This document shows, piece after piece, positions 4,317 to 27,790 of a stretch of DNA of 64,000 bases. A program made the position numbers and the translations under genes. How positions within the stretch are numbered: position 1 is the stretch's first letter; the number at the start of each line of letters is the position of its first letter. The notes beneath the pieces were generated by a model that saw nothing but the letters and a program-made list of their open reading frames with translations, had not been told where the DNA came from and did not search any database. Origin of the DNA: an uncultured Actinomycetota bacterium (GTDB lineage: Bacteria; Actinomycetota; Actinomycetes; Propionibacteriales; Nocardioidaceae); assembly GCA_963747975.1 (NCBI GenBank), contig CAVVHI010000006.1, positions 88,145-152,144 of the forward strand, given 5' to 3'.

Positions 4317-5471
4317 ATGACGTCCCCCCTCCTCGACCAGGTGAACGCCGCGCTCGCGACCGTCAACGATCCCGAGATCAGGCGGCCGATCACCGAGCTG
4401 AACATGGTCGACTCCGTCGACATCGACGACTCCGGCAGGGTCTCGGTCACCGTGCTGCTCACGGTCTCCGGCTGCCCGCTCAAGGACACCATCACCCGGG
4501 ACGTCACCGAGGCGGTCTCGAAGGTCCCCGGCGTGACCGACGTCGACCTCACCCTGGGCACGATGACCGCCGAGCAGCGCGCCGGGCTGCAGGAGGTGCT
4601 CCGCGGCGGGCAGGCCCAGCGCGAGATCCCGTTCGCCAAGGCGGACTCGCTGACCAAGGTCTACGCCATCGCCAGCGGGAAGGGTGGCGTCGGCAAGTCG
4701 TCGGTCACCGTGAACCTCGCCGTCGCGATGGCCGAGCAGGGCCTCAAGGTCGGCATCGTCGACGCCGACATCTACGGCCACTCGGTCCCCGCCATGCTCG
4801 GCGTCGGCGACGTGCGGCCGACCCAGGTCGAGGACATGATCATGCCGGTGCCCACCGAGCACGGCATCTCGGTGATCTCGATCGGGATGCTCAAGCCCCG
4901 GCGCGACCAGGTGGTCGCCTGGCGCGGGCCGATGCTGGACCGGGCCCTGGTGCAGATGCTCAGCGACGTCTTCTGGGGCGACCTCGACGCGCTCTTCCTC
5001 GACCTGCCCCCGGGCACCGGTGACATCGCGATCTCGCTCGGCCAGCACCTGCCCAACGCCGAGGTGGTCGTGGTGACCACCCCGCAGGAGGCCGCCGCCG
5101 AGGTCGCCGAGCGCGCCGGCACGATGGCGTCGATGATGCACCAGCGCGTGGTGGGCGTCGTGGAGAACATGTCCTTCCTGCCCTGCCCGCACTGCGGCCC
5201 CGAGCACCGGCTCGAGGTGTTCGGCTCCGGCGGTGGCGCCCGCGTCGCCGCGACCCTGTCGAGCCGCTTCGGGTACGACGTCCCGGTGCTCGGCGACGTG
5301 CCGCTCGACCTGACCCTGCGGGAGGGCGGCGACGCCGGCGACCCGATCGTCGCGGCCGCCCCGGAGACCCCTGCTGCGCAGGAGCTCACGAAGGTCGCCG
5401 CGACGCTGTCCGGCCGCGGCCGTGGCCTCGCGGGCATGCAGCTCGGTCTCACCCCTGCCGGTAGATTCTGA
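4317..5471 (+). CDS. mrp: Mrp/NBP35 (ApbC) Fe-S carrier ATPase
   Basis: DPEI..ITEL; SGKGGVGKS; DADIYGHS; WRGPML; DLPPGTGD; VVENMS. Confidence 0.95.
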   Translation: MTSPLLDQVNAALATVNDPEIRRPITELNMVDSVDIDDSGRVSVTVLLTVSGCPLKDTITRDVTEAVSKVPGVTDVDLTLGTMTAEQRAGLQEVLRGGQAQREIPFAKADSLTKVYAIASGKGGVGKSSVTVNLAVAMAEQGLKVGIVDADIYGHSVPAMLGVGDVRPTQVEDMIMPVPTEHGISVISIGMLKPRRDQVVAWRGPMLDRALVQMLSDVFWGDLDALFLDLPPGTGDIAISLGQHLPNAEVVVVTTPQEAAAEVAERAGTMASMMHQRVVGVVENMSFLPCPHCGPEHRLEVFGSGGGARVAATLSSRFGYDVPVLGDVPLDLTLREGGDAGDPIVAAAPETPAAQELTKVAATLSGRGRGLAGMQLGLTPAGRF

Positions 5472-5474
5472 GCC

Positions 5475-5813
5475 GTGTTCGGGATCGGCCTGCCAGAGCT
5501 CCTGGTGATCGCGGTGGTGGGCATCCTCGTGTTCGGCCCCGACCGGCTCCCGGAGTTCGCCCGGCAGGCCGGCCGCTTCGTCCGCCAGGTCCGTCAGTTC
5601 ACCCAGTCCGCGCGTAACGACCTGCGCAGCGAGCTCGGGCCGGAGTTCGCCGACCTCGAGCTGTCCGACCTCGACCCCCGCCAGATCGTGCGCAAGCACA
5701 TCCTGGAGGCGATGGACGAGGAGGACGAGCGTCCCGCGACCGTGCCGGTCCGCCCCGGGCTGCGTCCCCTCGAACGCGGCGAGCGTCCGCCGTACGACCT
5801 CGAGGCGACCTGA
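5475..5813 (+). CDS. tatB: Sec-independent translocase subunit TatB
   Basis: MFGIGLPELLVIAVVGILVFGPDRLP..ELGPEF..LDP..FDLEAT-like C-terminus. Confidence 0.88.
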   Translation: MFGIGLPELLVIAVVGILVFGPDRLPEFARQAGRFVRQVRQFTQSARNDLRSELGPEFADLELSDLDPRQIVRKHILEAMDEEDERPATVPVRPGLRPLERGERPPYDLEAT

Positions 5814-7146
5814 AGCCCACCTTCGCGTCGAGGGTGATCTCCACGGTGCTCCGGCTGCCGTCCCGGCGCACGACGAGCTCGATGGTCTCGCCCGGCTGGT
5901 GGCTGCGGATGGCCACGATCAGCTCGATCCCGTCGGCGACCGGCTTGCCGTCCACGGCGAGGACGACGTCGCCCTCGCGGAGGCCGGCGCGCTGCGCCGG
6001 GGTGCCCGACCCGACCGAGGCGATCTCCGCGCCGCCGCCCCCGCCGGTGCGCACCTCGGCGCCGATGACCGGGTACTTCGCCTCGCCGGTCCGCACGATC
6101 TGGGCCGCGGTCACCTTGACCTGCTCCATCGGGATCGCGAACCCGACCCCGATGTTGCCGCCGTTGCCGACGAACCCGCCCATCGTCGCGATCGCGGAGT
6201 TGACCCCGACGACCTCTCCGCGCAGGTTCACCAGCGGCCCGCCGGAGTTGCCCGGGTTGATCGCGGCGTCGGTCTGCACGGCGTTGATGTACGACGACTC
6301 GTCGGCGTCGCCGGTCGTCACCGGACGGTCGAGGGCGCTGATGATGCCGGAGGTGACCGTGCTGCTCAGGCCCAGCGGCGAGCCGATCGCGACGACGGTC
6401 TCGCCGACGTTCATCGACCGGGAGCTGCCGAGTGCCGCCGGCTGGAGGCCCTCCACCCCCTCGACGTCGAGGACCGCGATGTCGTAGGTGGCGCTGCGGC
6501 CCACGATCCGGGCCGGGTGCCGGCGGCCGGCGTGGTCGATGACCTGGATCCGGCCGTTCTCGGCGGCCCCCGAGACCACGTGGTTGTTGGTGATGACGTG
6601 GCCGCGCCGGTCCGCCACGAACCCGGACCCGGTCCCCTGGCCGGACCCGCCGCGGGTCACGATCTGGACGGTGCTGGGCAGCAGCGCCTCGGCCACCGCC
6701 GCCACCGAGCCGTTCTCGGGGTCCAGCGGCGCGGGCGCGCCCTCCCGGCCCTCGAAGACCGCGGCCTCCGACCCCGCCCGGTCGAGGGTGCCGGCCACGA
6801 GCGCGCCGCTCATCGCACCCCCGAGCAGGCCCACGACCAGCGCCGTCGCCGCGACGACCGGCCACACCCAGCCGGGGAGGCGGGAGCCGCGCTCCGGGGC
6901 GGGGGCGTACCAGCCCTGGCCGTAGTAGGCGCCGTGGCCGTAGGGGTCGTAGCCGTAGCCGCCGTGGCCGTGGGGGTCGTAGCCGTAGCCGCCGTCGTAG
7001 GCGTACGGGTCGTGCCCGTAGCCGCTGCCGGAGACGTCGTAGCCGTAGGGAGCGGTGTCGTCGGACCCGGACGCAGCCTGCTCCGCCCCGGTCGCCTCGT
7101 CGCGGTTCTCCGGGCGTGCTGGCTCGTTCTCGGTCACGCCAGCCAT
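5599..7146 (-). CDS. htrA: HtrA/DegP serine protease with TM helix and PDZ domain (C-terminus runs into tatB antisense)
   Basis: TNNHVV, DIAVL, QTDAAINPGNSGGPL catalytic motifs; PDZ GTPAQRAGLREGDVV. Confidence 0.92.
   Translation of the reverse strand: MAGVTENEPARPENRDEATGAEQAASGSDDTAPYGYDVSGSGYGHDPYAYDGGYGYDPHGHGGYGYDPYGHGAYYGQGWYAPAPERGSRLPGWVWPVVAATALVVGLLGGAMSGALVAGTLDRAGSEAAVFEGREGAPAPLDPENGSVAAVAEALLPSTVQIVTRGGSGQGTGSGFVADRRGHVITNNHVVSGAAENGRIQVIDHAGRRHPARIVGRSATYDIAVLDVEGVEGLQPAALGSSRSMNVGETVVAIGSPLGLSSTVTSGIISALDRPVTTGDADESSYINAVQTDAAINPGNSGGPLVNLRGEVVGVNSAIATMGGFVGNGGNIGVGFAIPMEQVKVTAAQIVRTGEAKYPVIGAEVRTGGGGGAEIASVGSGTPAQRAGLREGDVVLAVDGKPVADGIELIVAIRSHQPGETIELVVRRDGSRSTVEITLDAKVGFRSPRGRTADARRVRGDAARGGPARSRDARPPRPSPPGCACARSGGGRGRTARGRRTPARARCAGRYARTG
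6931..6990. repeat. 30-bp tandem repeat (2 copies, 1 mismatch) in htrA N-terminal coding region
   Basis: gccgtggccgt(a/g)ggggtcgtagccgtagcc twice; encodes Gly/Tyr/His/Asp-rich repeats. Confidence 0.85.
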
Positions 7147-7152
7147 TTTGGC

Positions 7153-7731
7153 CTACGGCCGCAACTCGTCCGCACCCTCCACCCACGACGGGTCCGCCGA
7201 CACCTCGTCCGCGGGGCCGGCCGACGGGAGCCGGCCGTGCACCCGCGCCACCGGCGCCACCACGGCCGGGATCCCGGTGGCGGGGGCGTGGGTGAGGGCG
7301 GAGGTGGGTGGCGCGGGCGTCCCACCGGCGGGGCCGAAGGGGCTCCCGGTGAGCGTGGCCAGTCCCAGCACCGCCACGGAGACCGACCCGGCGCCGGCGA
7401 CGGCCAGTCCCGCACGGCGTCGTCCCCGGCCCCGGCGCTCGATCTCGCCGACCGCCGCCCAGGCAGCAGCGCCCGAGGGCCGCGACGGCGACCCGGTGGC
7501 GGAGCCGAGCCCGTAGAGGGAGCCGAGCAGCTGGTCGGGCGGCGGGTCCGCGTCGTGGTCGGTCATCGCCGCGAGCTGGGTCTTGACCCAGCCCTCCCGT
7601 TCGACCTGGCGGCGGCAGGTGTCGCAGGAGTGGACGTGGGCCCAGGCCCGCTCGGCGGAGGAGGCGTCGAGCTGGCCGTCGAGCAGGGCGCTGACGGCGA
7701 TGCCGAGGTGTCCTCCGAGGTAGCGCATCAC
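7153..7731 (-). CDS. Zinc-binding anti-sigma factor (zf-HC2, RseA-like)
   Basis: [20 protein letters not shown] (HxxxCxxC); TM segment; directly downstream of sigE. Confidence 0.88.
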
Positions 7732-8402
7732 ACCGTCTGGGTCTCGAGGTCGGGGTCGCAGGGCTCGCAGGGCCCGGAGTAGCGTTCCCGGCCGGCGGCC
7801 GGGGCGCGGTGCGCGAGCGCCTTGCGCAGCATCGTGCGGCCGCGGTGGATCCGGGAGCGGACCGTGCCCAGCTTCGCGCCGAGCACGTCGGCGATCTCCT
7901 CATAGGTCAGGCCCTCGATGTCGCAGAGGACCACGGCGGCGCGGAACTCGGGCGGCAGCGCGGCCAGCGCGGCCTCGACGTCGTCGTCGAGCATGCCGTC
8001 GGCGACCTGGGCGTCGGGGCTCGGCACCCGCCCGGGCAGCCGCTGGTCGACGTCGTCGGCGAGGGCGTCGAAACGGATCTTGGACCGGCGGCGGGCCTGG
8101 TCGAGGAAGAGGTTCGTGGTGATCCGGTGCAGCCAGCCCTCGAACGTGCCCGGGGTGTAGCTCGACAGGGAGCGGAAGACGCGGACGAACACCTCCTGGG
8201 TGAGGTCCTCGGCGTCGTGGGGGTTGCCGGTCAGACGGTAGGCGAGCCGGTAGACGCGCAGGGAGTGCTGGCTGACGACGTCCTCCCACGAGGGCGCGGT
8301 CCAAGCCTCGGCGCTGTCCGGGGTGGTGCGGTCGAGGTCGGTCATCGGGCGCTCCTTGCCCTGGAGGGCTCTCGCGGCCAGGCCGCTCAGTGTGCTCGCC
8401 AT
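7728..8402 (-). CDS. sigE: ECF RNA polymerase sigma factor SigE (alternative start 8345)
   Basis: [47 protein letters not shown]; sigE-antisigma-htrA synteny. Confidence 0.92.
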
Positions 8403-15997: not shown

Positions 15998-16335
15998 CAG
16001 CGGTCCTCCTTCCGGGCGGAGCCCTCGGAGCCGGCCTCCTGCTCGGCCGCGGGCCCCACCGCCTGGTCGTGCTCCTGCTCGCGCCCCTGTCGCGCCTCGT
16101 CGAGCTCGTCGGCGAGCCGCGCCAGCAGCGTGTCGACCTCCGACATCCGGTAGCCCCGGAACGCGGTGGTGAAACGCACCCGGCGCAGGTCGTCGCCGGC
16201 CAGGGGCCCTTCGGCCTGCACGCGCGAGTCCGCGCGGTCGTCGTACACCTCGGCCATCGACCCGCCCATGCCGGCGGCCACGACGGCGACCACGCCCATC
16301 AGCAGCACCACGAGGATCGCGAAGAACCAGGTCAC
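15997..16335 (-). CDS. Membrane-anchored DivIVA domain-containing protein
   Basis: N-terminal TM then VRFTTAFRGYRMSEVDTLLARL. Confidence 0.85.
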   Translation of the reverse strand: MTWFFAILVVLLMGVVAVVAAGMGGSMAEVYDDRADSRVQAEGPLAGDDLRRVRFTTAFRGYRMSEVDTLLARLADELDEARQGREQEHDQAVGPAAEQEAGSEGSARKEDR

Positions 16336-17156
16336 ATCGGCTCCTCGTCCCAGTCCAACGCGACCTGGAAGTCCTCGTCCTCGAGAGCGGTCGCGCGGTG
16401 GCGGGAGCGGGCCTCCTCGACGATGCGCACCGCCTCGGCCACGTCGTCGGTGACGTGGAAGATCTCGAAGTCGGGCGCGGAGACCTTCCCGCCGGCCAGC
16501 ACGGTGTGGCGCAGCCAGTCGACCAGGCCGGTCCAGTAGTCCGAGCCCATCAGGATGATCGGGAACGACGTCACCTTGCCGGTCTGGACGAGGGTGAGCG
16601 CCTCGAAGAGCTCGTCGAAGGTGCCGAAGCCGCCGGGCAGGACGACGAATCCCTGGGCGTACTTCACGAACATGGTCTTGCGCGCGAAGAAGTACCGGAA
16701 GTTGATCCCGACGTCGACGTACGGGTTGAGCCCCGCCTCGAACGGCAGCTCGATGCCGAGCCCCACCGACACCCCGCCGCCCTCGCAGGCACCCTTGTTC
16801 GCCGCCTCCATGATCCCCGGCCCACCGCCGGTGATCACCGCGAAACCGGCCGCGGACAGCGCGCGGCCGAGCTCCTCGGCCAGGACGTACATCGGCTCCC
16901 CCGGGCCGGTGCGCGCGGACCCGAACACCGAGATGGCAGGACCGAGCTCGGCCAGCGACCCGAAGCCCTCGACGAACTCCGCCTGGATCCGCAGGACGCG
17001 CCACGGGTCGGTGTGCACCCAGTCGCTCGGGCCGCGCTGGTCGAGCAGGTGCTGGTCGGTGGTGCCGGACTCGTAGCCGCGCCGGCGCATGGTCGTGCGG
17101 CCGCGCTGCTTGCTGGGGCCGGAGGGAACCTCGCCGCCCGCGCCGTGGTGCGTCAT
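16332..17156 (-). CDS. LOG family / TIGR00730 Rossmann-fold nucleotide hydrolase
   Basis: SVFGSAR, TGGGPGIMEA, RKTMFVKY, PGGFGTFDELFE. Confidence 0.92.
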   Translation of the reverse strand: MTHHGAGGEVPSGPSKQRGRTTMRRRGYESGTTDQHLLDQRGPSDWVHTDPWRVLRIQAEFVEGFGSLAELGPAISVFGSARTGPGEPMYVLAEELGRALSAAGFAVITGGGPGIMEAANKGACEGGGVSVGLGIELPFEAGLNPYVDVGINFRYFFARKTMFVKYAQGFVVLPGGFGTFDELFEALTLVQTGKVTSFPIILMGSDYWTGLVDWLRHTVLAGGKVSAPDFEIFHVTDDVAEAVRIVEEARSRHRATALEDEDFQVALDWDEEPM

Positions 17157-17165
17157 GCGCCGAGG

Positions 17166-18233
17166 CTATCCGGCCGGGGCGAGCCAGGTCCGCAGCTGCT
17201 GCTCGACACGGTGCAGGTGCTCGACCGGCACGTGCTCCTCCTGCTTGTGCGCCAGGTGCGGGTCGCCCGGCCCGAAGTTGACCGCCGGGATGCCGAGGGC
17301 GCTGAACCGGGCCACGTCGGTCCAGCCGAACTTGGGGTTGGCCACCCCGCCGACGGCCTCGACGAAGGCGGCCGCGGCGGGCACGGACAGGCCGGGCATC
17401 GCTCCGGGGGCGGTGTCGGTGATCTCGAGGTCGTAGCCCTCGAAGACCTCGCGCAGGTGCGCGGCCGCCTGCTCCTCGGAGCGGTCGGGGGCGAAGCGGT
17501 AGTTCACCGACACCGTGCAGCGGTCGGGCAGCACGTTGCCGGCCACGCCGCCGGCGATGAACACCGCGTTGAGCCCCTCGCGGTACTCCAGGCCGTCGAG
17601 CACCACCCGCCGCGGCTCGTAGTCGTCGAGGCGGCGCAGCACCTCCGCGGCGCCGTGGATGGCGTTGGTACCGCGCCAGGCGCGGGCCGAGTGCGCGCGC
17701 TCCCCGTGGGTGGTCACGTCGACGCGCATGGTGCCCTGGCACCCGGCCTCCACGACGGCGTCGGAGGGTTCCATGAGGATCGCGAAGTCGGCCTGGAGCA
17801 GCTCGGGGTGGGCCTCACCGAGGAGCTTGAGACCGTTGCGCTCCTCCTCGACCTCCTCGCAGTCGTAGAACAGGAAGGTGAGGTCGCGGTTCGGCGCCGT
17901 CACCGTCGCCGCGATCCGCAGGGCCACCGCGACCCCTCCCTTCATGTCGCAGCTGCCGAGGCCGTGGATCAGCTCCCCGTCACGGCGGGCCGGGAGGTTG
18001 GCGTTGACCGGGACGGTGTCGAGGTGCCCCGCGATCACCACCCGCTCCGGGCGACCGAGCCCGGTCCGCGCGACGACGGTGTTGCCGAACCGGCTCACGT
18101 CCAGGTGCGGCAGGGAGCGCAGCTGTGCCTCGACCGCGTCGGCGATCGCCTTCTCCTCGCCGCTGACCGACTCGATGTCCACGAGCTGCTCGGTGAGGGT
18201 GGCGACGTCCACGGTGAGGTCCAGTTCGCTCAT
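17166..18233 (-). CDS. dapE: Succinyl-diaminopimelate desuccinylase
   Basis: AGHLDTVP, GSCDMKGG, CEEV, HSARAW, GWTDVARF, GPGDP..AH. Confidence 0.95.
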   Translation of the reverse strand: MSELDLTVDVATLTEQLVDIESVSGEEKAIADAVEAQLRSLPHLDVSRFGNTVVARTGLGRPERVVIAGHLDTVPVNANLPARRDGELIHGLGSCDMKGGVAVALRIAATVTAPNRDLTFLFYDCEEVEEERNGLKLLGEAHPELLQADFAILMEPSDAVVEAGCQGTMRVDVTTHGERAHSARAWRGTNAIHGAAEVLRRLDDYEPRRVVLDGLEYREGLNAVFIAGGVAGNVLPDRCTVSVNYRFAPDRSEEQAAAHLREVFEGYDLEITDTAPGAMPGLSVPAAAAFVEAVGGVANPKFGWTDVARFSALGIPAVNFGPGDPHLAHKQEEHVPVEHLHRVEQQLRTWLAPAG

Positions 18234-18245
18234 GCGCCCATCCTG

Positions 18246-18974
18246 TCAGCGCTCGAAGACGCAGAACTCGTTGCCCTCCGGGTCGGCCATCACGTCCCAG
18301 GAGATCCGCTCCGCCGGGCCCGCCGGTGCATCCGCGTCCCGGGCCCGGAGCAGGGTGGCGCCCTTCTCCCGCAGCTCCTCGACGCTGCCGTAGACGTCCC
18401 AGTGGATGCGGTTCTTCACGGTCTTCGGCTCCGGGACGGGCACGAAGTCCATGGTGGTGATCGGCATCCCCGGGACGTGCTCGAGCCACCACCAGCCCTT
18501 GTCCTCGTCGCCGCCGGGCTCCACGCCGAGGACCTCGCCCCACCAGGCCGCGGCCGCCCGCGGGTCCCGGCAGTCCACGACCAGCCCGTGCACCGTGTAG
18601 CCGGGCACGTCCTCGGGCCCGCGCACGAAGGCGCAGAACTCGCCGCCCTCGGGGTCGGCCATCACCGTCCATCCGAAGCCGGACTCGGCGGCCGGCAGCA
18701 CGACCGTGGCGCCCCGGGCGACGAGCTCGTCCACGTCGCTGGTGTAGACGTCGAGGTGCACCCGGTGCTTGACCGTCTTGGGCTCGGGGACCCGGCACAT
18801 CGCGATGCCGTGCCCCTCGTCGGGTCCGACGAGGTCGCCGGGACCGCCGCCGTCCGGCCTGAACCGGAGACCCGCCACGTCCGCCCAGAACCGGCCGAGG
18901 GTCTCGCCGTCGGCGGTGTCCATGCACAGCTCCTTCCACCGTGCGATCCCGGTCACCTGGGTCTCCTTCCGCAT
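18246..18974 (-). CDS. VOC/glyoxalase family protein, two repeats
   Basis: Duplicated VPEPKTVK(H/N)R(V/I)H(L/W)DV and MADPEG(G/N)EFC(A/V)F. Confidence 0.9.
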
Positions 18975-19032
18975 CGCAGGACACCGCCGTCCGGCTGCGG
19001 CGTCCTTGCCCGTTTTCGGTAGCGTGGCACAC

Positions 19033-20010
19033 GTGACCGACAGCAACCAGACGCAGACAGCCACCAGCGCGTGGGGCTTCGGCCTCGCCACCTTCGCCGG
19101 CGTCGACGGCGAGGGCGGCGTGCTCGACACGTGGTACCCCTCCCCCGTGCTCGGCGACGCCCCGGACCACGCCGAGCCCTCCGAGGCGCTCGGCGCGCTC
19201 GAGGGCCCCGACGAGCTCCGCGGCGTGCGGCGGGTGGTCGTCCGCACGGTGGTCGAGGACCTGCAGGCGGCACCGGCCGACGCCCACGACGCGTGGCTGC
19301 GGCTGCACCTGCTCAGCTCCCGGCTGGTCGCTCCGCGGACCATCTCGGTCGACGGCATCTTCGGGCTGCTCAGCAACGTGGTGTGGACCAGTGCGGGGCC
19401 GTGCCCGGTCGAGGGCTTCGAGGAGACCCGGCTGCGTCTGAAGGCGGCCGGCCGGGACGTGGCGGTGTACGGGGTCGACAAGTTCCCGCGGATGACCGAC
19501 TACGTGCTGCCCACCGGCGTACGTGTCGCCGACGCGGACCGGGTCCGCCTCGGCGCCCACCTCGCGGCCGGGACCACCGTGATGCACGAGGGCTTCGTCA
19601 ACTTCAACGCCGGGACGCTCGGCGCCTCGATGGTCGAGGGGCGGATCAGCGCCGGCGTGGTCGTCGGCGACGGCTCCGACATCGGCGGCGGCGCCTCGAT
19701 CATGGGGACCCTCTCCGGAGGCGGCAAGGAGGTCATCTCCATCGGCGAGCGGTGCCTGGTCGGCGCCAACGCGGGCATCGGGATCTCCCTGGGCGACCAC
19801 TGCGCGGTGGAGGCCGGCTGCTACGTGACCGCCGGGACCAAGGTCACCGTCCAGGACATGGACCGCAAGCCCAAGGTCATCAAGGCCGCCGAGCTCTCCG
19901 GCGGCTCCAACATCCTCTTCCGGCGCAACTCGGTCACCGGTGCGATCGAGGCGGTGCCGTGGGAGGGCGAGGGCATCGAGCTGAACGCCGCCCTGCATGC
20001 CAACGACTGA
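19033..20010 (+). CDS. dapD: Tetrahydrodipicolinate N-succinyltransferase
   Basis: [45 protein letters not shown]. Confidence 0.95.
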
Positions 20011-21016
20011 ACCACTGCCGCGACGCCGCCGTCCTCGACGAACCGAGGCCGGCGGGGCCGCACGTGTGCTCCTCGTCGGCCTCGCCGTTCTCGGTGTCGT
20101 CGCGGTCGCCGGGGTGATGGTGCTGCGCGGGGTGGGCCCGTTCCCCGGCCGTGAGGTCTGCACGGTCCAGGTCGGCGACGTCACCGCAGAGCTGAGCCAG
20201 GAGCAGGCGGAGAACGCCGCGATCATCGCCGCCGCCGGGGTGCGCCGCGACCTGCCGGCCCGCGCGGTCTCGATCGCGCTCGCGACCGCCTACCAGGAGA
20301 GCAAGATCCGCAACCTCGACCACGGGGACCGCGACTCGCTCGGCATCTTCCAGCAGCGGCCGTCGATGGGGTGGGGCACCGCGGAGCAGTTGCAGGACCC
20401 CCACTACGCGACGAACGCCTTCTACGACGAGCTGAGGAAGGTCGAGGGCTACCGGGAGATGCGGATCACCGAGGCGGCCCAGGCGGTGCAGCGGTCCGGC
20501 TTCCCCGAGGCCTACGAGGACCACGCCGAGGACGCACGCGCCCTCGCGTCGGCGCTGACCGGCTACTCCGCCGGAGGGCAGTTCACCTGCGTGGTCCGCA
20601 ACGGCTCCGACCTGGCGCGGCAGCGGCCCCGCGACAACGGGCTGACGCGGCGCGCGGACGCCGTGCGCCGCGACGTGACGCGCGCCTTCGGCGACCTGCC
20701 ACTCGGAGGCTTCGCGCCCGGGGGCGTGCGCGAGGGACACCAGGAGGGGTCCACCCACTACGAGGGGCGTGCGGTCGACATCTTCGTCCGCCCGATCAAC
20801 GAGGCGAACAACCGCACGGGCTGGGCGGTCGCGCAGTACCTCGTCGCGCACGCCGACCGGCTGGAGATCCAGACGGTGATCTTCGACGGCAGGATCTGGA
20901 CCGCCCGGCGCTCCGCCGAGGGCTGGCGCGACTACGACCCGCCGGACCGTCCCGGGGACCGTGCGGTGCTCGAGCACCGCGACCACGTGCACGTGGACGT
21001 GCACGAGGGCGGCTGA
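19997..21016 (+). CDS. Membrane-anchored putative cell-wall enzyme (lysozyme-like plus M15-like peptidase domains)
   Basis: TM helix; [25 protein letters not shown]; C-terminal HYEGRAVD and HRDHVHV. Confidence 0.65.
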
Positions 21017-21175
21017 CGCGGCGAGCCTGTCCCGCCCTCGCGGGACGGGACACGTAGTCCGTCCGGGTCATCCCGCGGCGTCGTTCGGCCGCTTTCGGGG
21101 ATTCGGGCTGGACATCACCGGGGCAAACCGCTCGAATGGCTCAGGGGAGACACACCGGACGTGACGGGGGAACTG

Positions 21176-21451
21176 ATGAGCGACTCGACGATCTACACGA
21201 TCGGCACGGCGCTGAACCGAGCGCGGGACAACGACGTGCCGGTCGAGATCCTGGTCGAGGGGATGTGGATCACCGGTCGGGTGCTCGCCGTCGACGGCTT
21301 CGGGGTGGTCCTGCACACCGGCGATGACCAGCACTCCGTGATCCGGATCGAGAACGTCTCCGCGGTCACGATCCTGTCCGAGGCGCCGCACCGCCGGCCG
21401 ATCCCGGAGCGGGTGCACGCGATGCCCGGCCCCCGGTCGGCCTACGACTGA
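21176..21451 (+). CDS. Small hypothetical protein with Sm/Hfq-like pattern
   Basis: LNRARDNDVPVEILVEGMWITGRVLAVDGFGVVLH..VIRIENVSAV; alternative GTG start 21161. Confidence 0.7.
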   Translation: MSDSTIYTIGTALNRARDNDVPVEILVEGMWITGRVLAVDGFGVVLHTGDDQHSVIRIENVSAVTILSEAPHRRPIPERVHAMPGPRSAYD

Positions 21452-21470
21452 CGCCGGGCGGTGACCGACG

Positions 21471-21520
21471 TCGGGCGGCGGAGGCTCACCCGCCCTCGGG
21501 CGGCGGAGGCTCACCCGCCC
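21471..21520. repeat. Exact 25-bp tandem duplication including the dapC stop codon
   Basis: tcgggcggcggaggctcacccgccc x2; each copy can fold back. Confidence 0.9.
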
Positions 21521-22659
21521 AGACGTCGTACCGCCTCCGCGACGCGTTCGTCGGTGGCGGTGAACGCCACCCGCACGTGCCGCGCCCCCGCCGGCCCGTA
21601 GAACTCGCCGGGCGCCACGAGGATGCCGAGGTCGGCGAGGGCGCCGACGGTGTCCCAGCACGGCTCGTCGCGGGTGGCCCACAGGTACAGCGCCCCGGTC
21701 GACTCGTCGATCCGGAAGCCGGCGCCCTCGAGCGCGGACCGCAGGAGGGTACGACGGGCGGCGTAGCGCGCGTGCTGCTCGTCGGCATGGGCGTCGTCGT
21801 CGAGCGCCACCTTCATCGCCACCTGCTGGGGCCCGGGCATCTGCAGGCCGAGGTTCTTGCGCACCGCGAGCAGCTCGGCCACGACCGACCGGTCCCCCGC
21901 CACGAACGCGCAGCGGTAGCCGGCGAGGTTGGACCGCTTGGATAGGGAGTGCACGGCGAGCAGGCCGCTGTGGTCACCGTCGCAGACGTCGGGGTGCAGC
22001 ACGCTGAGCGGCTTCTCGTCCCAGGCGCTCTCGATGTAGCACTCGTCGGAGACCAGCAGCACGCCGCGCTCGCGCGCCCAGGCCACGACCTTGCGCAGGT
22101 GGTCGACGGGGAGCACCTTGCCGGTCGGGTTCGACGGGGAGTTGATCCACATCAGCCTGACCCGCTCGGGGCCGAGCTCGGTCAGCGAGTCCGCGGCCTT
22201 CGCCCGGGCACCGGCGAGCCGGGCGCCGACCTCGTAGGTCGGGTAGGCCAGGCGGGGATGCACGACCAGGTCCTGCGGCCCGAGCCCCAGATGCGTGGGC
22301 ATGGAGGCGATCAGCTCCTTGGAGCCGATCACCGGCAGCACCGCCCCGATGTCGAGGCCGGTCACGCCGTGGCGGCGTGCGAGCCAGTCGACGGCGGCCT
22401 GCCGGGTGTCGGCGAGCCCGACCGTCATCGGGTACCCGGGCGAGTCGGCGGCCTCACCCAGGGCCCGCTGGACGACCTCGGGGGTGGGGTCGACGGGCGT
22501 GCCCACCGACAGGTCGACGATGCCGTCGCGATGGGCGCGGGCCCGCTCGGCGTAGGGGACGAGGTGGTCCCACGGGAAGTCGGGCAGCCGGCCCGAGACG
22601 GCACGTGCCGCCCACCACGGAGCGGCGGACGGCACGGTGCCGGAGGACGGAGAGGTCAC
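21511..22659 (-). CDS. dapC: Succinyldiaminopimelate transaminase
   Basis: DLSVGTPVD, NSPSNPTG, SDECY, HSLSKRSNLAGYR; coupled to fdxA. Confidence 0.92.
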   Translation of the reverse strand: MTSPSSGTVPSAAPWWAARAVSGRLPDFPWDHLVPYAERARAHRDGIVDLSVGTPVDPTPEVVQRALGEAADSPGYPMTVGLADTRQAAVDWLARRHGVTGLDIGAVLPVIGSKELIASMPTHLGLGPQDLVVHPRLAYPTYEVGARLAGARAKAADSLTELGPERVRLMWINSPSNPTGKVLPVDHLRKVVAWARERGVLLVSDECYIESAWDEKPLSVLHPDVCDGDHSGLLAVHSLSKRSNLAGYRCAFVAGDRSVVAELLAVRKNLGLQMPGPQQVAMKVALDDDAHADEQHARYAARRTLLRSALEGAGFRIDESTGALYLWATRDEPCWDTVGALADLGILVAPGEFYGPAGARHVRVAFTATDERVAEAVRRLGG

Positions 22660-22979
22660 TCTTGGTTCTGGGGGGGCAGCTCGGCGATGATCGGGTGGTC
22701 CTTCTCGATGACCCCCATCTTCGCGGCGCCGCCGGGCGAGCCGAGGTCGTCGAAGAAGTGGACGTTGGCGTCGTAGTACTCCTTCCACTGCTCCGGGGTG
22801 TCGTCCTCGTAGAAGATCGCCTCCACGGGGCAGACCGGCTCGCAGGCACCGCAGTCGACGCACTCATCCGGGTGGATGTAGAGCATGCGCGAGCCTTCGT
22901 AGATGCAGTCGACGGGGCACTCGTCGACGCAGGCCCTGTCCTTGACGTCCACGCAGGGCTGCGCGATGACGTACGTCAC
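22656..22979 (-). CDS. fdxA: 7Fe ferredoxin
   Basis: VTYVIAQPCVDVKDRACVDECPVDCIYEG..CVDCGACEPVCP. Confidence 0.96.
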   Translation of the reverse strand: MTYVIAQPCVDVKDRACVDECPVDCIYEGSRMLYIHPDECVDCGACEPVCPVEAIFYEDDTPEQWKEYYDANVHFFDDLGSPGGAAKMGVIEKDHPIIAELPPQNQE

Positions 22980-23117
22980 CTTGGTTCCTCCTCGGATGGC
23001 TGTCGGTCGGGCGTCCCGGTCGAGAGGCTGCGGCACCGGGCCCGCACCTGTACAGCCTAGTATCTCGGGCGGGTACGCACAGGAGCGCACCCGGTCCGCT
23101 CCCCGAAAGTTGTCCCC

Positions 23118-24137
23118 GTGGCTCCCTCCTCCCCTCCCGGGCTCGGCCCGCACGTCGTCGGGCAGCGCGTGGTGGTGCGCCGCGTGCTGCCGGGGCAGGC
23201 CGGCCCGACCGGTGGCCCCGCGTTCACCGACGTGCTCGGCGTCCTGCGGAGCTGGGCCGGCGGGGTGGCCGTGGTGCAGCCCGCCGAGGGGCCGGCCGTC
23301 TCGATCGCCGTCGCCGACATCGTCTCCGGCAAGCCGGTCCCGCCGCGCCCGTCGGTGCGGATGCGGGTCTCGGCCGCCGACGCGGAGCGCCGGGCGCTGG
23401 CCGCGTGGCCGGCCCCGGAGACCGAGCGGCTCGGCGAGTGGGTGCTACGCGCGGCCGCGGGCTTCAGCGCACGAGCCAACTCCGTGCTCGCGGTCGGGTC
23501 GCCGCAGCTGCCGCTGGACGAGGCCGTGCAGCGGGTCTCGGGCTTCTACGCCGCCCGGGGGTTGCCGCCGCTGGTGCAGGTCGTGGTCGGCTCCGACGAG
23601 GACGCGGCCTTCGAGGGGCTGGGGTGGGTGACCGCCCGGCCGGGCGAGGACGACACGCTGTTCCAGGTGGCTTCGGTGTCCGCGGCGCGGCGCCTGGTAC
23701 GCCGGTCGCTGCCCGGCGTCGTACCGGCGACGCAGGTCAGTCCTCGGGTCGGCGACGGGTGGCTCGCCGACGACGAGAGGGCCCTGGCCTCGCGGGGACC
23801 GGCGACCGAGGTGCTGGAAGGCCCGGCCGAGGTCGGGTTCGTCTCCGTGCCCGGCCCCGACGGCGACGTCGTGGCGAAGGGCCGGGTCTCCCGCGGTGCG
23901 GGGGCCGTGCCCGGCGACGAGGACTGGGCCGGGATCAGCAACGTGTGGGTCTCCCCGCAGCGGCGGCGGCAGGGCCTGGGCACCGTGGTGATGGCCGCGC
24001 TGCTGGAGTGGGCCGCCGAGCGCGGTGCGACGACCGCGTTCCTGCAGGTGCGCGGGGACAACCCTGCCGCGATCGCGGCCTACGAGCGGCTCGGGTTCGT
24101 CACCCACCACGCCTACCGGTACCTCACCTCACCCTGA
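23118..24137 (+). CDS. GNAT family N-acetyltransferase (tandem)
   Basis: GFSARANS; QRRRQGLG; LQVRGDNPAAIAAYERLGF. Confidence 0.88.
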   Translation: MAPSSPPGLGPHVVGQRVVVRRVLPGQAGPTGGPAFTDVLGVLRSWAGGVAVVQPAEGPAVSIAVADIVSGKPVPPRPSVRMRVSAADAERRALAAWPAPETERLGEWVLRAAAGFSARANSVLAVGSPQLPLDEAVQRVSGFYAARGLPPLVQVVVGSDEDAAFEGLGWVTARPGEDDTLFQVASVSAARRLVRRSLPGVVPATQVSPRVGDGWLADDERALASRGPATEVLEGPAEVGFVSVPGPDGDVVAKGRVSRGAGAVPGDEDWAGISNVWVSPQRRRQGLGTVVMAALLEWAAERGATTAFLQVRGDNPAAIAAYERLGFVTHHAYRYLTSP

Positions 24138-24184
24138 GCACCCCGGCCGGGCCCGCGGGGCGCGTGATGGCCGGTCGGCGATCC

Positions 24185-24637
24185 TCAGACGGATGCCAGG
24201 GCACGCACCGGCGCGGCCTCGTACCGCTGCCGCGGCAGCACGGTGTCGGTGGCGACCGGTGCCGGGAGGCGCTCGGCGACGAGGTGCAGGGTGACGTAGC
24301 GACCGGCCGGACGGTCCAGGGTCGCCGCCTGCAGCTCGACGTGGCCGTCCTCGACGAGGAAGGCGCCGGCCTGCCAGTGGTGGAAGGCGACCGTGGCCCA
24401 CGCCAGCTCGACGGCTGCGGCGACCTCGGCGTCGCCGGCGTCGGCGCGGAAGCTCCCGATGGCGACGAGGAGGTGGTCCTCCGCGTCGGTGCCGCCCACC
24501 TCGAGCTCGGCGAAGAGACCCGAGGCGAGCAGCTCCTGACGCAGGGCGACCTCGAAGACCGACCGGACCTGGGAGGTCGCCGGGGCGGCGTTCATGTGCA
24601 GTCCGCGGCGAAGCTTCTGGAAGGCTGCGAGGTTCAT
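24185..24637 (-). CDS. Hypothetical protein, paralog of 32762..33169
   Basis: SGLF..LEV..TD..D; W.A..DG.VE..AT..P.GRYVT.HLVA.R shared with second copy. Confidence 0.7.
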   Translation of the reverse strand: MNLAAFQKLRRGLHMNAAPATSQVRSVFEVALRQELLASGLFAELEVGGTDAEDHLLVAIGSFRADAGDAEVAAAVELAWATVAFHHWQAGAFLVEDGHVELQAATLDRPAGRYVTLHLVAERLPAPVATDTVLPRQRYEAAPVRALASV

Positions 24638-24771
24638 GTCTCCAGCATGCAAGGAGCAGCGCCACGCCGCCGCCACCTGCGGGTAACGCCTCCTCCACAG
24701 GACCCCCACAGTTCCGGCGCGCCACGCGGGGCGGCTGCCCGCGGTCAGGCGCCGGACCGGTCCTGCGCCGA

Positions 24772-26511
24772 CTACGCGGACGGAGGGGGCCCGCACACGA
24801 CGGTGTCGGACGGCGTGTAGGTGGTGTGGAAGGTCTCCTTGCGGACCACCTCGTCGTTGCCCGGCTTGCGGAAGTACCGGAACACGTCGATGTCGAAGCC
24901 GCCGTACCCCTCGTGCGGCACACACTCGTCGTCGGTGATGTAGCGGGTCTCCTCCTGGGTGAAGTCGTACCGGTCGGAGGTGCTCGTGCTGATCTCCCAG
25001 TGCTTGGTCGACCAGAACCGTGCGTGCATCTCGCCCTGGGAACCGGACGTCGAGGGCTTGATCCAGGTCTCGATCAGCACGCCGTAGGGGGTGTCGTTCT
25101 TGAACCGCAGGTCGACCGCACCCCAGGCGACGGTCGCCTCCCGGCCGATCGGGTAGCGGTCGATGTAGAACGAGTGCGGCTTGTGCTCGACGTCCTCGAG
25201 GCCGGCGAAGAACATCGCGTTGAACAGGGTGGTCGCGACCTGCGAGACCCCGCCGCCGTAGTCCTCCTTGTAGACCCCGTTGCTGATGATGTAGCCCTTG
25301 GTGAACCCGTTCTCGGCCGTCCGCTCACCGACGGTGCCGTTCAGGCTGAACGTCTCCCCCGGCTTCAGCACCGTGCCGGTGACCAGCTCGGCGGCCCGGC
25401 CGAGGTTCACGTTGCGGTAGTCCGAGTGCGGGAAGTAGGTGGTGAAGGAGGAGACGACCTCCTTGATGCCGAGCTTCCTGGCGTCCTTGGTGCTGAACTT
25501 CGGCCGCTGGACCTCGGCCTCCACCTCGAGGCGCCGTTGGCCCTCACGCTTCACCAGCACGTCGGGGAACGCCTCGGCCACCTGCTCCGGGTCGAAGGTC
25601 ACGCCGTTCTTCCCCGGGACCACCTCGGGGCTGCCGTCGACGAGCCGCACGGTCGCCGGCTCGGGGCTGAGTGCCACGTCCTTCATGGCCGGACGCACCG
25701 CCCGCATCAGCTTCTTCGGGTCCACCCGCGGCACGAGCTTCCCGCCCTCGGGCTCCATCGACAGGGCCCGGGCGTAGCGCTCCGGGCGCACCACGACCTC
25801 GTCCCCACCGAGCACCAGCGTCACCGGCGCGGACATCGCCGGGTTGGCGAAGCGGTTCATCGCCCGGCGCACCGCCGGCTCCGGCACGTCCGCGGCCACC
25901 TCCGTCACCTCGAGGCGTACGACGTCGTCGCCGGTGTCGTCCAGGAAGGCGTCCAGGAGCGCCTGGCGGGCGGAGTCCCGGTCGACCTGCTGCCCCGCCC
26001 GGGGAAGCTTCATGTCCGCGGTGCCGTCGCGGAAGGTGATCCGGCCCTCGACCGGCTCCTCGTCGACCTCGTTCGCGACCCGGTCGACCGCCCGGTCGAA
26101 GGACGCGTCGTCCACGGTCAGCACCGGGTCGAGCTCGTCACCGCCGGTGAAGAAGTCCCACATCCGGGCCGGGTCCCAGCTCCGGCCCCCGCCGGCCTGC
26201 TCCACCGTGGCCTCGTAGTCGACGGCCAGACCGGCCTGGTCGGGGTCGATGCGGGACCGCCGGCCGTCGGCGGCGACCACGATCGGGGCCTCGGCGCGGG
26301 GCCCGAGCTCCTTCTCCAGGGTGGTCACGGCCGCCGAGGGCCGCAGGCCGCCGATGTCGACCCCGGCGACCGTCGTACCGCGGGGAACCTTCTCGCCGGT
26401 GAAGAGGTAGCCGGCGACGTACAGCCCGCCGAACAGCACGACGAGACCGACCACCAGTGCGGTGATCACGCGGCGGTCGGTGGTCTTCTCCTGGGAGGGC
26501 AGGCCTGTCAC
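24772..26511 (-). CDS. VanW family protein with peptidoglycan-binding domains
   Basis: TM helix; RNVNLGRAAELV, FSLNGTVG, GGGVSQVATT, HKPHSFYI.RYP.GREAT, DLRFKNDT. Confidence 0.9.
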   Translation of the reverse strand: MTGLPSQEKTTDRRVITALVVGLVVLFGGLYVAGYLFTGEKVPRGTTVAGVDIGGLRPSAAVTTLEKELGPRAEAPIVVAADGRRSRIDPDQAGLAVDYEATVEQAGGGRSWDPARMWDFFTGGDELDPVLTVDDASFDRAVDRVANEVDEEPVEGRITFRDGTADMKLPRAGQQVDRDSARQALLDAFLDDTGDDVVRLEVTEVAADVPEPAVRRAMNRFANPAMSAPVTLVLGGDEVVVRPERYARALSMEPEGGKLVPRVDPKKLMRAVRPAMKDVALSPEPATVRLVDGSPEVVPGKNGVTFDPEQVAEAFPDVLVKREGQRRLEVEAEVQRPKFSTKDARKLGIKEVVSSFTTYFPHSDYRNVNLGRAAELVTGTVLKPGETFSLNGTVGERTAENGFTKGYIISNGVYKEDYGGGVSQVATTLFNAMFFAGLEDVEHKPHSFYIDRYPIGREATVAWGAVDLRFKNDTPYGVLIETWIKPSTSGSQGEMHARFWSTKHWEISTSTSDRYDFTQEETRYITDDECVPHEGYGGFDIDVFRYFRKPGNDEVVRKETFHTTYTPSDTVVCGPPPSA

Positions 26512-26522
26512 AAGGCGCCATC

Positions 26523-26888
26523 CTAGGTCGCGGCGCCCACCGACCCCGAACCGCTCCGTACCGGTGGCTGCCGCGCCCAGGCGATGCCTGTGACCAGGAC
26601 CACCACGCCGAAGCCCATGAGGAGCCACCCGCGTGCGTCGGCGGAGACCACGTAGTCGCCCTCGCCGCGGCCCGCCACGGCGACCAGCAGCACGGTCAGC
26701 CACCCTGCTGCGAACGCCGCGGTCCCGCCCGCCGCCCACCAGTGGATCGCCCACATGACCACGAGCGTGGCGGTCATCGCGATCACCGCGCCCGGGAAGG
26801 TGCGGTGCAGGCCGACGCCCGCGACACCCACGGCCACACCGGTCACGAAGGCGAGGACCAGGGCCAGCATCCGGCCCAGGAGCCTCAT
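26523..26888 (-). CDS. Hypothetical membrane protein (DUF6113-like)
   Basis: Four TM segments, GEGD motif, coupled downstream of mshB. Confidence 0.7.
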
Positions 26889-27790
26889 CCGAGGCCGGCG
26901 AAGAGGTCCGTCTCGAGGCCGTCCTCACCGACGGGGCCGCGCTCGCCCTTGACGAGGCGGAAGTACTCCACGGCCCAGACCTCGTTCCCCATGTTGTTCG
27001 ACAGGGCGAAGAAGGGCCCGTCGACCGTGATCTGGGTGGCGTGCGCCCGCATCGCGGCCATCTTGGCGTCGACGAAGTCGGTGCCGTCCACCACCGCGTC
27101 GAGGAGGTGGTCCGGAGTCACGAACGGCGGGAGGGGGCCGTCGGGGTCCATGCCCTCGAACGACGTGGTGTCGCCGGAGTCGCGCAGGCGCCGCAGCCCG
27201 TCACGCATCCGGCTCTCCGACATCGCACCCCAGTAGATCTTGGCGACCTCCCACGGCTCCCCCAGCTCGGGACGGAAGGACCGGGCGGCGGCCAGCGCGG
27301 CGCCGTACATCGCGACCCGGTGCGCCTGGATGTGGTCGGGGTGGCCGTAGCCACCGAACTCGTCGTAGGTGACCAGCACCTGCGGGCGCACCTCCCGGAT
27401 CACCTCGACGAGGTCGGCCGCGGCCTGCGTCAGGTCGGCCCGCCAGAAGGTTCCCTCGCGGACGTCGTCCCCGGCGACCGCGTGGCCGTCGGCGTGCCAG
27501 ACCATCCCGGAGTCGCGGTACTTGCCGGGCCCGCCGAGGAAGCGGTGGTCGGTGACACCGAGCTCCTTCATGGCCGCAGCGAGCTCGCCGATCCGGTGCC
27601 GGCCCAGGGTGTCGTCGCGGTCGGAGGCCACGTGCGCGAGCTCGGGGACGAGCACCTCCCCCTCCTCGCCCAGCGTGCACGTCACGAGCGTCACGCCGGC
27701 TCCCTGGGCGGCGTACTTCGCCATCGTGACGCCCTGGTTGATCGTCTCGTCGTCGGGGTGCGCGTGCACCAGCAACATCCGCTGTTCCAT
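26885..27790 (-). CDS. mshB: GlcNAc-Ins deacetylase (mycothiol biosynthesis)
   Basis: [47 protein letters not shown]. Confidence 0.95.

Follow-up and report, generated by a model that had tools for sequence, protein, structure and literature searches.

The window analyzed here is a stretch of 64,000 nucleotides (nt) from an uncultured soil actinobacterium of the Nocardioidaceae (contig CAVVHI010000006.1, assembly GCA_963747975.1). It carries a small forward-strand gene, here called the hfq-like gene, which lies between a gene for a hydrolase-like protein and a convergent dapC (Table 1). The first-pass annotation of this DNA had proposed an Hfq/Sm-like protein, and the two peptides it quoted, LNRARDNDVPVEILVEGMWITGRVLAVDGFGVVLH and VIRIENVSAV, are both exactly present in the translation, MSDSTIYTIGTALNRARDNDVPVEILVEGMWITGRVLAVDGFGVVLHTGDDQHSVIRIENVSAVTILSEAPHRRPIPERVHAMPGPRSAYD. 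The protein belongs to a divergent Hfq-like subfamily within the Hfq branch of the Sm superfamily. We do not describe it as an Hfq orthologue because it falls short of the curated thresholds and lacks several of the functional motifs that define Hfq.

The gene is genuinely coding and is under purifying selection. GC contents at the three codon positions are 0.67, 0.45 and 0.97, and pairwise differences among 59 orthologous coding sequences are 0.25, 0.16 and 0.41 at the same positions. The median ratio of nonsynonymous to synonymous divergence (dN/dS) among these orthologues is about 0.4, a value for which synonymous divergence is probably compressed by the extreme GC content of third codon positions (GC3). 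An in-frame GTG at 21161, 15 nt 5' of the ATG, could serve as an alternative start. The ATG was preferred because orthologues begin with MSDS(T/M)IYTIG and because the window has a Shine-Dalgarno-like hexamer just upstream; relatives have G-rich blocks at the same site. An open reading frame (ORF) of 204 amino acids (aa) at 21068-21682 overlaps the gene on the opposite strand and is a typical high-GC artefact.

The window protein has 157 close homologues in a collection of 5.8 billion proteins, and an exhaustive hidden Markov model (HMM) search of 1.84 billion representatives returned 229 clusters at E <= 1e-3. Canonical Hfq was evidently not reached at whole-library significance, since it must exceed 229 clusters by far. 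Curated profile collections point to Hfq. The Pfam Hfq family (PF17209) matches the window protein at E 3.6e-5, its 23.7 bits falling slightly short of the gathering cut-off (27 bits), and the sole other Pfam match is a Tudor domain (E 0.16). In NCBIfam only Hfq models match, the best being TIGR02383 (E 2.1e-5), with 24.3 bits against an equivalog cut-off of 61.7. The Pfam profiles for WYL, DUF3107 and LSM gave no match to the protein at E values up to 10. Across the family, the Pfam Hfq profile is matched by 27 of 31 members at E <= 0.01, and any other family by at most two.

Direct comparisons gave the same relationship. A single BLASTP comparison with E. coli Hfq, for which a typed-in sequence that behaves as Hfq in alignments was used, yielded 15/35 identities in the Sm1 region (E 5e-5). 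Comparison by hhalign of a 58-member family profile with seven canonical Hfq cores, whose sequences were typed in, gave a probability of 87%, an E value of 3.9e-6 and 53 aligned columns at 28% identity, with family residues 11-64 in register with E. coli Hfq 10-62. The 15 identities in these columns agree with the earlier estimate, made by eye, of about 16 over some 55 residues. With a small Hfq HMM the window protein scored 17.0 bits, as against 8.5 bits for the best of 2000 shuffles. When the PDB was searched with a profile of 58 diverse members, the best match was Aquifex Hfq (E 2.7e-4), and the remaining weak matches were mostly Hfq, including the cyanobacterial 3HFO and 3HFN. Weak profile matches to designed 'Pizza' beta-propellers, versicolorin reductase, the DNMT3A PWWP domain and MORC2 were rejected as short beta-hairpin resemblances, because they were repeat-summed or covered 30 residues or fewer. 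The resemblance of the window protein to Hfq exceeds chance.

Structure prediction assigns the protein an Hfq-type Sm fold; this is a prediction, but a robust one. AlphaFold2 was run on the single chain with two alignments, one of 31 close and one of 58 diverse sequences, and mean predicted local distance difference test scores (pLDDT) of the two models were 83.7 and 87.2, with residues 11-60 at 92-98. Both models show the same topology, with an N-terminal helix extending to residue 18, five bent strands at residues 22-27, 30-39, 43-48/49, 52-57 and 61-66, and a low-confidence tail. The predicted fold is thus that of the Sm superfamily, as had been suggested from the letters alone. For each model, the top 50 Foldseek matches in the PDB were all Hfq (probability 1.00), among them the proteins of Aquifex, Caulobacter, Thermotoga, Listeria, B. 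subtilis, Pseudomonas, E. coli and Synechocystis. Target-normalized template modeling (TM) scores were 0.68-0.84, and root-mean-square deviations were 1.1-1.8 Å for most of the alignments, which span about 60 residues. The PRC barrel and KOW folds, named beforehand as outcomes that would count against an Sm assignment, do not occur in the top 50 for either model, nor do Sm/LSm chains or WYL proteins. Hydrophobic residues along the beta4/beta5 edge are conserved (V55, V/I56, I/V61 and V64), which is compatible with a ring but is no test of one.

Conservation was counted over 128 representatives clustered at 50% identity, in the hhalign register. Present in at least 90% of these are G10, A12, L13, A16, V23, L26, G29, W31, G34, D40, G43 and V64. 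The Sm1 motif is retained: G29, G34 and D40 coincide in position with these residues of E. coli Hfq and occur in 116, 127 and 127 of the 128. The hydrophobic core pattern is also kept. Position 42, equivalent to F42 of Hfq, is mostly aromatic or histidine: it is F in the window protein, H in 56/128 and Y in 15/128, and D in a long-tailed subgroup of 16. At the position of K56 the family has R57 (113 representatives) or lysine (nine), and the V/I-S-A-V end of beta5 is present. Other residues are near-invariant in this family specifically. These include T8, G10, T11, A12, R15 and A16 of the helix, which form the pattern T8-x-G10-T11-A12-L13-x-R15-A16 with a strongly conserved R15, as well as G43 and W31. 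The latter occurs in 125/128 at the position of the distal-face K31. The window subfamily also has H53 at the position of Q52.

Much of the RNA-contacting surface of Hfq has been replaced. The absence of the proximal-face glutamine and of the YKHA motif, both noted in the initial reading, is borne out by the family: Q8 corresponds to I9 in the window protein and to I/V/M9 in its relatives, and Y55-K56-H57-A58 corresponds to I56-R57-(I58)-E59-N60 in the profile alignment. Taken singly, Y55 has become I/V56, H57 has become E/D59 and Y25 has become L26. The proximal uridine pocket (Q8, F42, K56 and H57) is partly retained. At the distal A-R-N site (Y25, I30, K31 and Q52) the family has L26, M/Q/H30, W31 and H/Q53, and this face is conserved yet chemically different from that of Hfq. 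Sm2 persists only as the basic R57 and the V/I-S-A/T-V end.

The C-terminal tails are highly variable, ranging from about 20 to 361 residues with a median of 33 in the 128 representatives; in one locus (L064) no stop interrupts the reading frame for 505 codons. The window subfamily has a short tail with the motif H81-A-M83-P84-G-P-R87 (21416-21436), whose M83 and P84 are shared by 90% or more of the close relatives. The tail motif was found in 18 of 117 representative tails, compared with 1.7 expected from shuffles. Long-tailed orthologues (P0195, P0196, P0197, P0202, P0191, P0266 and P0262) share the genomic position (e.g., L067 6001-6945). Their tails of 200-360 residues are rich in A, P, E and D, carry a net charge of -23 to -66 and contain an internal (R)-(I/V)-F-A-L-P-A-P motif similar to that of the short tails. 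They end in a basic tip, for example E-K-R-R-G-R-R-L-V-M-R, with the conserved form E-K-R-R-x-R-R-L-x-M-R.

Two intact tandem hfq-like copies are present between the hydrolase-like gene and dapC at four loci (Table 1), and these paralogues raise the possibility of mixed rings. At L034 and L062 the second copy is frameshifted, which may be a long-read assembly error.

Within the scope of our searches, the family is confined to Nocardioidaceae, and we make no statement about the phylum as a whole. A scan of one genome per GTDB species, based on peptide patterns that detect fairly close relatives only, so that the true distribution may be wider, identified 66 loci. Most are in metagenome-assembled genomes (MAGs), and they are assigned to Nocardioidaceae, Nocardioides, Propionibacteriales or unclassified Actinomycetota. 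This agrees with the original view of the host as an actinobacterium, as do the flanking genes, which are 73-97% identical to those of a Nocardioidaceae MAG locus (L001). Three carriers are cultured: Nocardioides iriomotensis NBRC 105384, N. jiangsuensis WL0053 and Nocardioides sp. CGMCC 1.19066. The same pattern-based scan for close relatives did not find the family in Streptomyces, Mycobacterium or Corynebacterium. A second homologue search, started from the core sequence of a long-tailed orthologue, gave 13 unnamed metagenomic matches only and no new taxa, and the exact window protein has no record in public assemblies. A tblastn search of a phage collection returned one non-significant match (E 0.6) and a plasmid collection returned none; a mobile-element origin is thus unsupported. 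Sm-like matches in a viral structure library, some from actinophages, were weaker than those to bacterial Hfq. The actinophage matches in this library (BFVD) include A0A2P1JSJ4 (Gordonia phage Waits), A0A8F2E6G2 (Streptomyces phage KimJongPhill), A0A249XSM1 (Mycobacterium phage Phabba) and A0A1C9EHH0 (Mycobacterium phage Tonenili). These are small proteins with a Sm/Hfq-like fold, two of which are named 'Hfq-like domain-containing protein'; none of them shows a sequence-level relation to the family.

The absence of any identified Hfq homologue from actinobacteria is stated in the literature (PMC6789036), and Streptomyces is described as being without one (PMC11678152), so the premise that Actinobacteria are generally regarded as lacking Hfq stands. 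The suggestion that the protein was unrecognized stands only in part. NCBI labels the orthologues hypothetical proteins, but automatic annotation at JGI/IMG assigns the name 'sRNA-binding regulator protein Hfq' to many, and of those listed about a dozen have a precomputed match to PF17209. Recognition at the sequence level is already in IMG; the characterization is new. Literature searches combining Hfq with Nocardioides or Actinomycetota, or using 'Hfq-like', found no description of the family. A single earlier 'actinobacterial Hfq' candidate, DUF3107, was put forward by Bora, Ward & Kim (2015; bioRxiv 10.1101/026195). It was rejected as the identity of the window protein, which has no DUF3107 match; the two are different and unrelated families.

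The hfq-like gene is probably a separate transcription unit, judging from the features that flank it. A candidate promoter was detected only through alignment of orthologous upstream regions; it ends 38 nt upstream of the ATG and is kept in register in the window and 14 relatives, compared with 0.54 expected in shuffles. Transcription from it would be predicted to start near 21144. A generic promoter and terminator scan of 20900-21650 reported nothing, and it omits this element because the -10 hexamer has no A at position 2. The short hairpin that follows the stop of the upstream gene also suggests independent transcription. The hairpin between the hfq-like gene and dapC has a predicted RNA folding energy of -55.9 kcal/mol (z -3.7; 0 of 200 shuffles were as stable) and is a candidate bidirectional terminator, without a U-tract.

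Public sequencing runs that contain the window are metagenomes (up to 22% of sampled words) and one metatranscriptome (4%). Two soil metatranscriptome contigs (X54 and X52) are 98-99% identical over 145-151 nt to the N. jiangsuensis orthologue, and one further contig is about 88% identical to the 5' end of the window gene. These contigs are weak evidence for expression of the family, as their depth resembles that of the flanks and carry-over of DNA is possible.

The gene order of the window is common to most of the 66 loci, with the hfq-like gene between the hydrolase-like gene and dapC. In 63 of the 66 the hydrolase-like gene lies upstream on the same strand. Exceptions to the usual arrangement are L020, L027 and L034, in which the hfq-like gene follows the GNAT gene, and L056, L058 and L061, in which a copy occurs in other contexts. 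The 339-aa hydrolase-like protein is probably an uncharacterized cell-wall hydrolase. Pfam and NCBIfam returned no family for it. Its residues 109-184 are muramidase-like (phmmer to PDB 8B2E/8B2H, E about 2.5e-5), and residues 206-335 weakly match the LysM-protein structure 9FLH (phmmer, E 0.0034). By eye, its N terminus includes a hydrophobic segment that is probably a membrane anchor, and its C-terminal region shows the motifs S-x-H-x-x-G-x-A-x-D and H-x-H that are typical of LAS zinc peptidases. Its orthologue in L067 carries the precomputed Pfam label PF26571 (VldE).

The reading we favor, with a probability of about 0.5, is that of a ring-forming Hfq-family protein that binds single-stranded RNA with altered specificity. 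The gene encodes a vertically inherited and strongly diverged Sm protein of the Hfq branch, from a family that is Nocardioidaceae-specific as far as detected. Subunits would assemble edge-to-edge, beta4 against beta5, as in other Sm/Hfq proteins. Single-stranded RNA would be bound by a remodeled proximal pocket consisting of R57, the aromatic residue or histidine at 42 and the D40-G41 loop, and the distal face would present the near-invariant W31 and, in the window subfamily, H53. The variable disordered tail, with its conserved (R/H)-x-M-P or F-A-L-P motif, may modulate or recruit; in long-tailed orthologues it is a hyper-acidic linker with a basic K-R-R-x-R-R tip at its end. Because the core is acidic and the family has lost the arginine patch of the rim, Q8, Y55, H57 and Y25, we would expect a factor that binds or protects RNA, or an adaptor, and not an annealer of small RNAs (sRNAs) to mRNAs in the style of E. 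coli.

Several results weigh against this reading. The window protein does not reach the curated Hfq thresholds of PF17209 and TIGR02383. In place of the Sm2 motif (Y/F)-K-H-A-I-S-T it has I56-R57-I58-E59-N60-V61-S62-A63, and Q8 and Y25 are not conserved in the family. The basic rim formed by R16, R17 and R19 in Hfq is replaced by variable R/Q/E17, D/E18 and G/D/N20. The Sm core of the family has a median net charge of -3 and an isoelectric point (pI) of 5.1, and is negative in 95% of representatives. Canonical Hfq cores have charges of +1 to +3 in six of seven cases, S. aureus being the exception at -1. The acidic core counts against a generic affinity for RNA, and together with the loss of the rim arginines makes classical annealing activity unlikely. 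The miaA-hfq-hflX neighborhood, which is typical of Hfq without defining it, is absent from this locus. No RNA sequencing or crosslinking and immunoprecipitation (CLIP) data were found for the window organism or a host strain.

The same residues can be read differently. An Hfq-fold ring could have given up RNA and serve protein-protein contacts, by analogy with cyanobacterial Hfq, and we consider this possible though on balance unlikely. It would account for the acidic core, the loss of most canonical RNA-contact residues and the short linear motif, which is conserved although the rest of the tail is disordered and which might be a docking peptide. The weak sequence and fold matches also include the cyanobacterial 3HFO and 3HFN. 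The role might then be linked to the neighboring cell-wall hydrolase and diaminopimelate genes, given the hydrolase-like gene upstream in 63/66 loci, the surrounding dapE-dapD...dapC region and the duplication of the module in L042. Synteny within one bacterial family may, however, reflect common descent only, and copies in L056, L058 and L061 are in unrelated contexts. The hfq-like gene also apparently has its own promoter-like element, with hairpins on both sides, and the sequence of the hydrolase-like protein reads as that of an apparently membrane-anchored, extracytoplasmic protein, whereas no signal peptide is obvious in the Sm protein. That the K56 position stays basic and position 42 stays aromatic or histidine also speaks against this role. 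A stand-alone Sm-fold sensor of single-stranded DNA or of a small ligand, functionally akin to WYL, is improbable. In its favor, actinobacteria are enriched in WYL domains, whose Sm fold is Hfq-like and carries functional arginines in the loop between beta4 and beta5 (PMC6789036), PafBC is triggered by binding of single-stranded DNA according to the title of one report (PMC11804915), and the paralogue in L058 lies directly upstream of a gene for a 921-aa ResIII/DEAD helicase. That helicase neighborhood is confined to a single locus, the window protein is not joined to any DNA-binding or effector domain and has no WYL match in Pfam at E up to 10, and the top 50 structural matches are all Hfq proper and none WYL.

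It is equally hard to credit the protein with the proteobacterial-type role of a classical Hfq, that is, of a hexameric sRNA-mRNA matchmaker in Nocardioidaceae. Homology to Hfq, the predicted fold and the JGI name on orthologues would agree with such a role, and variable disordered C-terminal tails are found in canonical Hfq as well. Studies of Hfq rim mutants report that the arginine patch of the rim is required for RNA annealing, but in this family the patch is replaced, with R17 variable, position 18 mostly D/E and position 20 mostly G/D/N. The losses of Q8, Y55, H57 and Y25, the acidic core and a score far below the NCBIfam equivalog cut-off point the same way. Chance similarity, or a spurious ORF, has to be considered in a genome of 72% GC, where many long spurious ORFs such as the antisense frame at 21068-21682 arise. 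This explanation is refuted by the 157 homologues and 229 representative clusters, the coding signature (GC3 of 0.97 and divergence biased to third positions), conserved synteny, consistent Hfq matches, the shuffle control and the fold. A more novel reading would be that of a first functional Hfq-lineage RNA-binding ring in Actinomycetota with electrostatics inverted relative to E. coli Hfq. We hold this reading to be distinctly unlikely. Were it true, an acidic ring would be combined with a basic or basic-tipped tail and, in some species, with a hyper-acidic disordered linker of 200-360 residues, and the pocket of Arg-57 and aromatic-42 would be nearer to Sm/LSm than to Hfq. In some genomes, tandem paralogues could build hetero-oligomeric rings like those of eukaryotic Sm proteins, and the three cultured Nocardioides strains would be a genetically tractable entry to protein-assisted RNA regulation in a phylum regarded as lacking Hfq.

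Canonical Hfq proteins (E. coli, Aquifex aeolicus 5SZD, Caulobacter 6GWK and Thermotoga 4Y91) are the best sequence and structure matches in the PDB. They share with the family a Sm core of about 65 residues, an N-terminal helix, five strands and a variable disordered C-terminal tail, as well as the G29/G34/D40 positions, the L-N start of the helix motif, F/H/Y at F42 and a basic residue at K56. The V-S-A-V end of the family resembles the I-S-T-V of Hfq. The family differs in being only 22-28% identical and below curated thresholds, in one-residue differences of loop length, in having W31 for K31 and no conserved Y-K-H, Q8, Y25 or rim R16/R17/R19, in its acidic rather than basic core, and in lacking the miaA-hfq-hflX context. 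Gram-positive Hfq proteins (S. aureus, B. subtilis and Listeria) are close fold matches in which the rim arginine patch is likewise weak or absent, and the S. aureus core is also slightly acidic (net -1, pI 6.1). However, they keep Q8, (Y/F)-K-H and aromatic residues at 25 and 30, which the family does not.

Cyanobacterial Hfq is reported to be a poor RNA binder that works together with the pilus ATPase PilB1, a partner with no counterpart at the window locus. The proteins of Synechocystis (Ssr3341, 3HFO) and Anabaena (Asl2047, 3HFN) are among the weak sequence and fold matches but are no closer in sequence than Aquifex or Caulobacter Hfq, belong to another phylum and conserve other residues. 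They provide a precedent for a lineage-specific, highly diverged Hfq that is missed by ordinary searches and is without the canonical RNA-contact residues (bioRxiv 10.1101/026195). DUF3107 was likewise proposed as a hidden actinobacterial Hfq, but it does not have the order of a helix followed by five strands (bioRxiv 10.1101/026195) that the family has. WYL proteins (PafBC and relatives) contain their Sm-like fold as a domain of multi-domain transcription factors, whereas the window protein is a stand-alone chain of 91 aa, not fused to HTH/WCX domains and without a sequence match to them. Archaeal and eukaryotic Sm/LSm proteins share the Sm fold and an arginine after beta4. The V-V-R-x-(E/D) segment of the family resembles their Sm2 sequence I-R-G-D/N, in which the arginine stacks on uridine; we treat this as a lead only. 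The helix and Sm1 region of the family are Hfq-like, unlike those of Sm/LSm proteins, and there is no LSM profile match.

At least one actinobacterial lineage thus carries a conserved, selected gene with an Hfq fold. How the many sRNAs of actinobacteria act without Hfq or ProQ is a question in the field, and a family restricted to mostly uncultured Nocardioidaceae leaves it unsolved for the phylum. With three cultured carriers, the family is directly testable. It is also a natural experiment: Sm1, the K56-equivalent arginine and the F42 equivalent are kept, while the family has lost the rim, Q8 and, from Y-K-H, the Y and H, a pattern that separates the parts of Hfq required for the fold from those used for RNA matchmaking.

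Table 1. Positions of the hfq-like gene, its protein segments and flanking features in the window, followed by tandem hfq-like copies in four related loci (coordinates of each locus).
Feature	Position	Strand	Details
hfq-like coding sequence	21176-21451	+	91 aa plus stop; ATG 21176, TGA 21449-21451
N-terminal alpha-helix (predicted)	21200-21229	+	residues 9-18 (3-18 in model 1); aligns with the L12-N13 region of the Hfq helix
Sm1 segment, beta1-beta3 (predicted)	21239-21313	+	residues 22-46; from hhalign, BLASTP, conservation and secondary structure
Sm2-equivalent segment, beta4-beta5 (predicted)	21329-21373	+	residues 52-66; hhalign mapping; HSVIR-IEN-VSAV
C-terminal tail	21374-21448	+	residues 67-91; net charge +1; pLDDT 64-73; probably disordered
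Shine-Dalgarno-like GGGGGA	21166-21171	+	4 nt 5' of ATG; direct sequence reading
Promoter-like element (candidate)	21109-21137	+	-35 TGGACA 21109-21114; 17-nt spacer; -10 TCGAAT 21132-21137
Short GC-rich hairpin	21026-21052	+	just past the stop of the upstream gene; inverted repeats I3/I4
Long hairpin	21466-21528		between hfq-like gene and convergent dapC; repeats D1, I5
LOG/lysine-decarboxylase-like gene	16332-17165	-
dapE	17166-18245	-
dapD	between dapE and hydrolase-like gene	+	TIGR03535, E 2.7e-151
Hydrolase-like gene	19997-21016	+	339 aa; adjoins hfq-like gene upstream
dapC	downstream of hfq-like gene, convergent	-	TIGR03539, E 2.9e-172
fdxA (ferredoxin)	beyond dapC	-
Rv0428c/CG3035-like GNAT gene	23118-24137	+
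VanW plus PG_binding_4 protein gene	24772-27117	-
L040 tandem copies	5001-5270 and 5489-5770
L044 tandem copies	5001-5264 and 5496-5753
L050 tandem copies	4473-4760 and 5001-5279
L055 tandem copies	5001-5267 and 5406-5615

The region 16332-27117 of the window is a neighborhood with a diaminopimelate and peptidoglycan flavor. Elsewhere, L042 (2992-5264) contains a second module of dapD-like (45% identity), hydrolase-like (62%) and hfq-like (58%) genes without dapC, fdxA or GNAT, in the same MAG as the standard locus L044. The hydrolase-like and hfq-like genes thus seem to move as a pair. In L058, from Nocardioides sp. CGMCC 1.19066, the hfq-like copy (5001-5279) directly precedes the gene for the superfamily-2 ResIII/DEAD-box helicase (5341-8103).

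Rfam detected no family at its gathering threshold in the whole 64-kb window, and a tRNA scan of the window found none. The window has a GC content of 71.7% and includes long spurious ORFs on both strands, for example 17980-20226 (-, 748 aa) and 16398-19022 (+, 874 aa). The convergent intergenic region between the hfq-like gene and dapC contains a 25-nt tandem direct repeat at 21465-21514 (CCGACGTCGGGCGGCGGAGGCTCAC / CCGCCCTCGGGCGGCGGAGGCTCAC), located inside the long hairpin, which the two copies form jointly. The second copy includes the stop codon of dapC, so the 3' end of dapC has apparently been duplicated.

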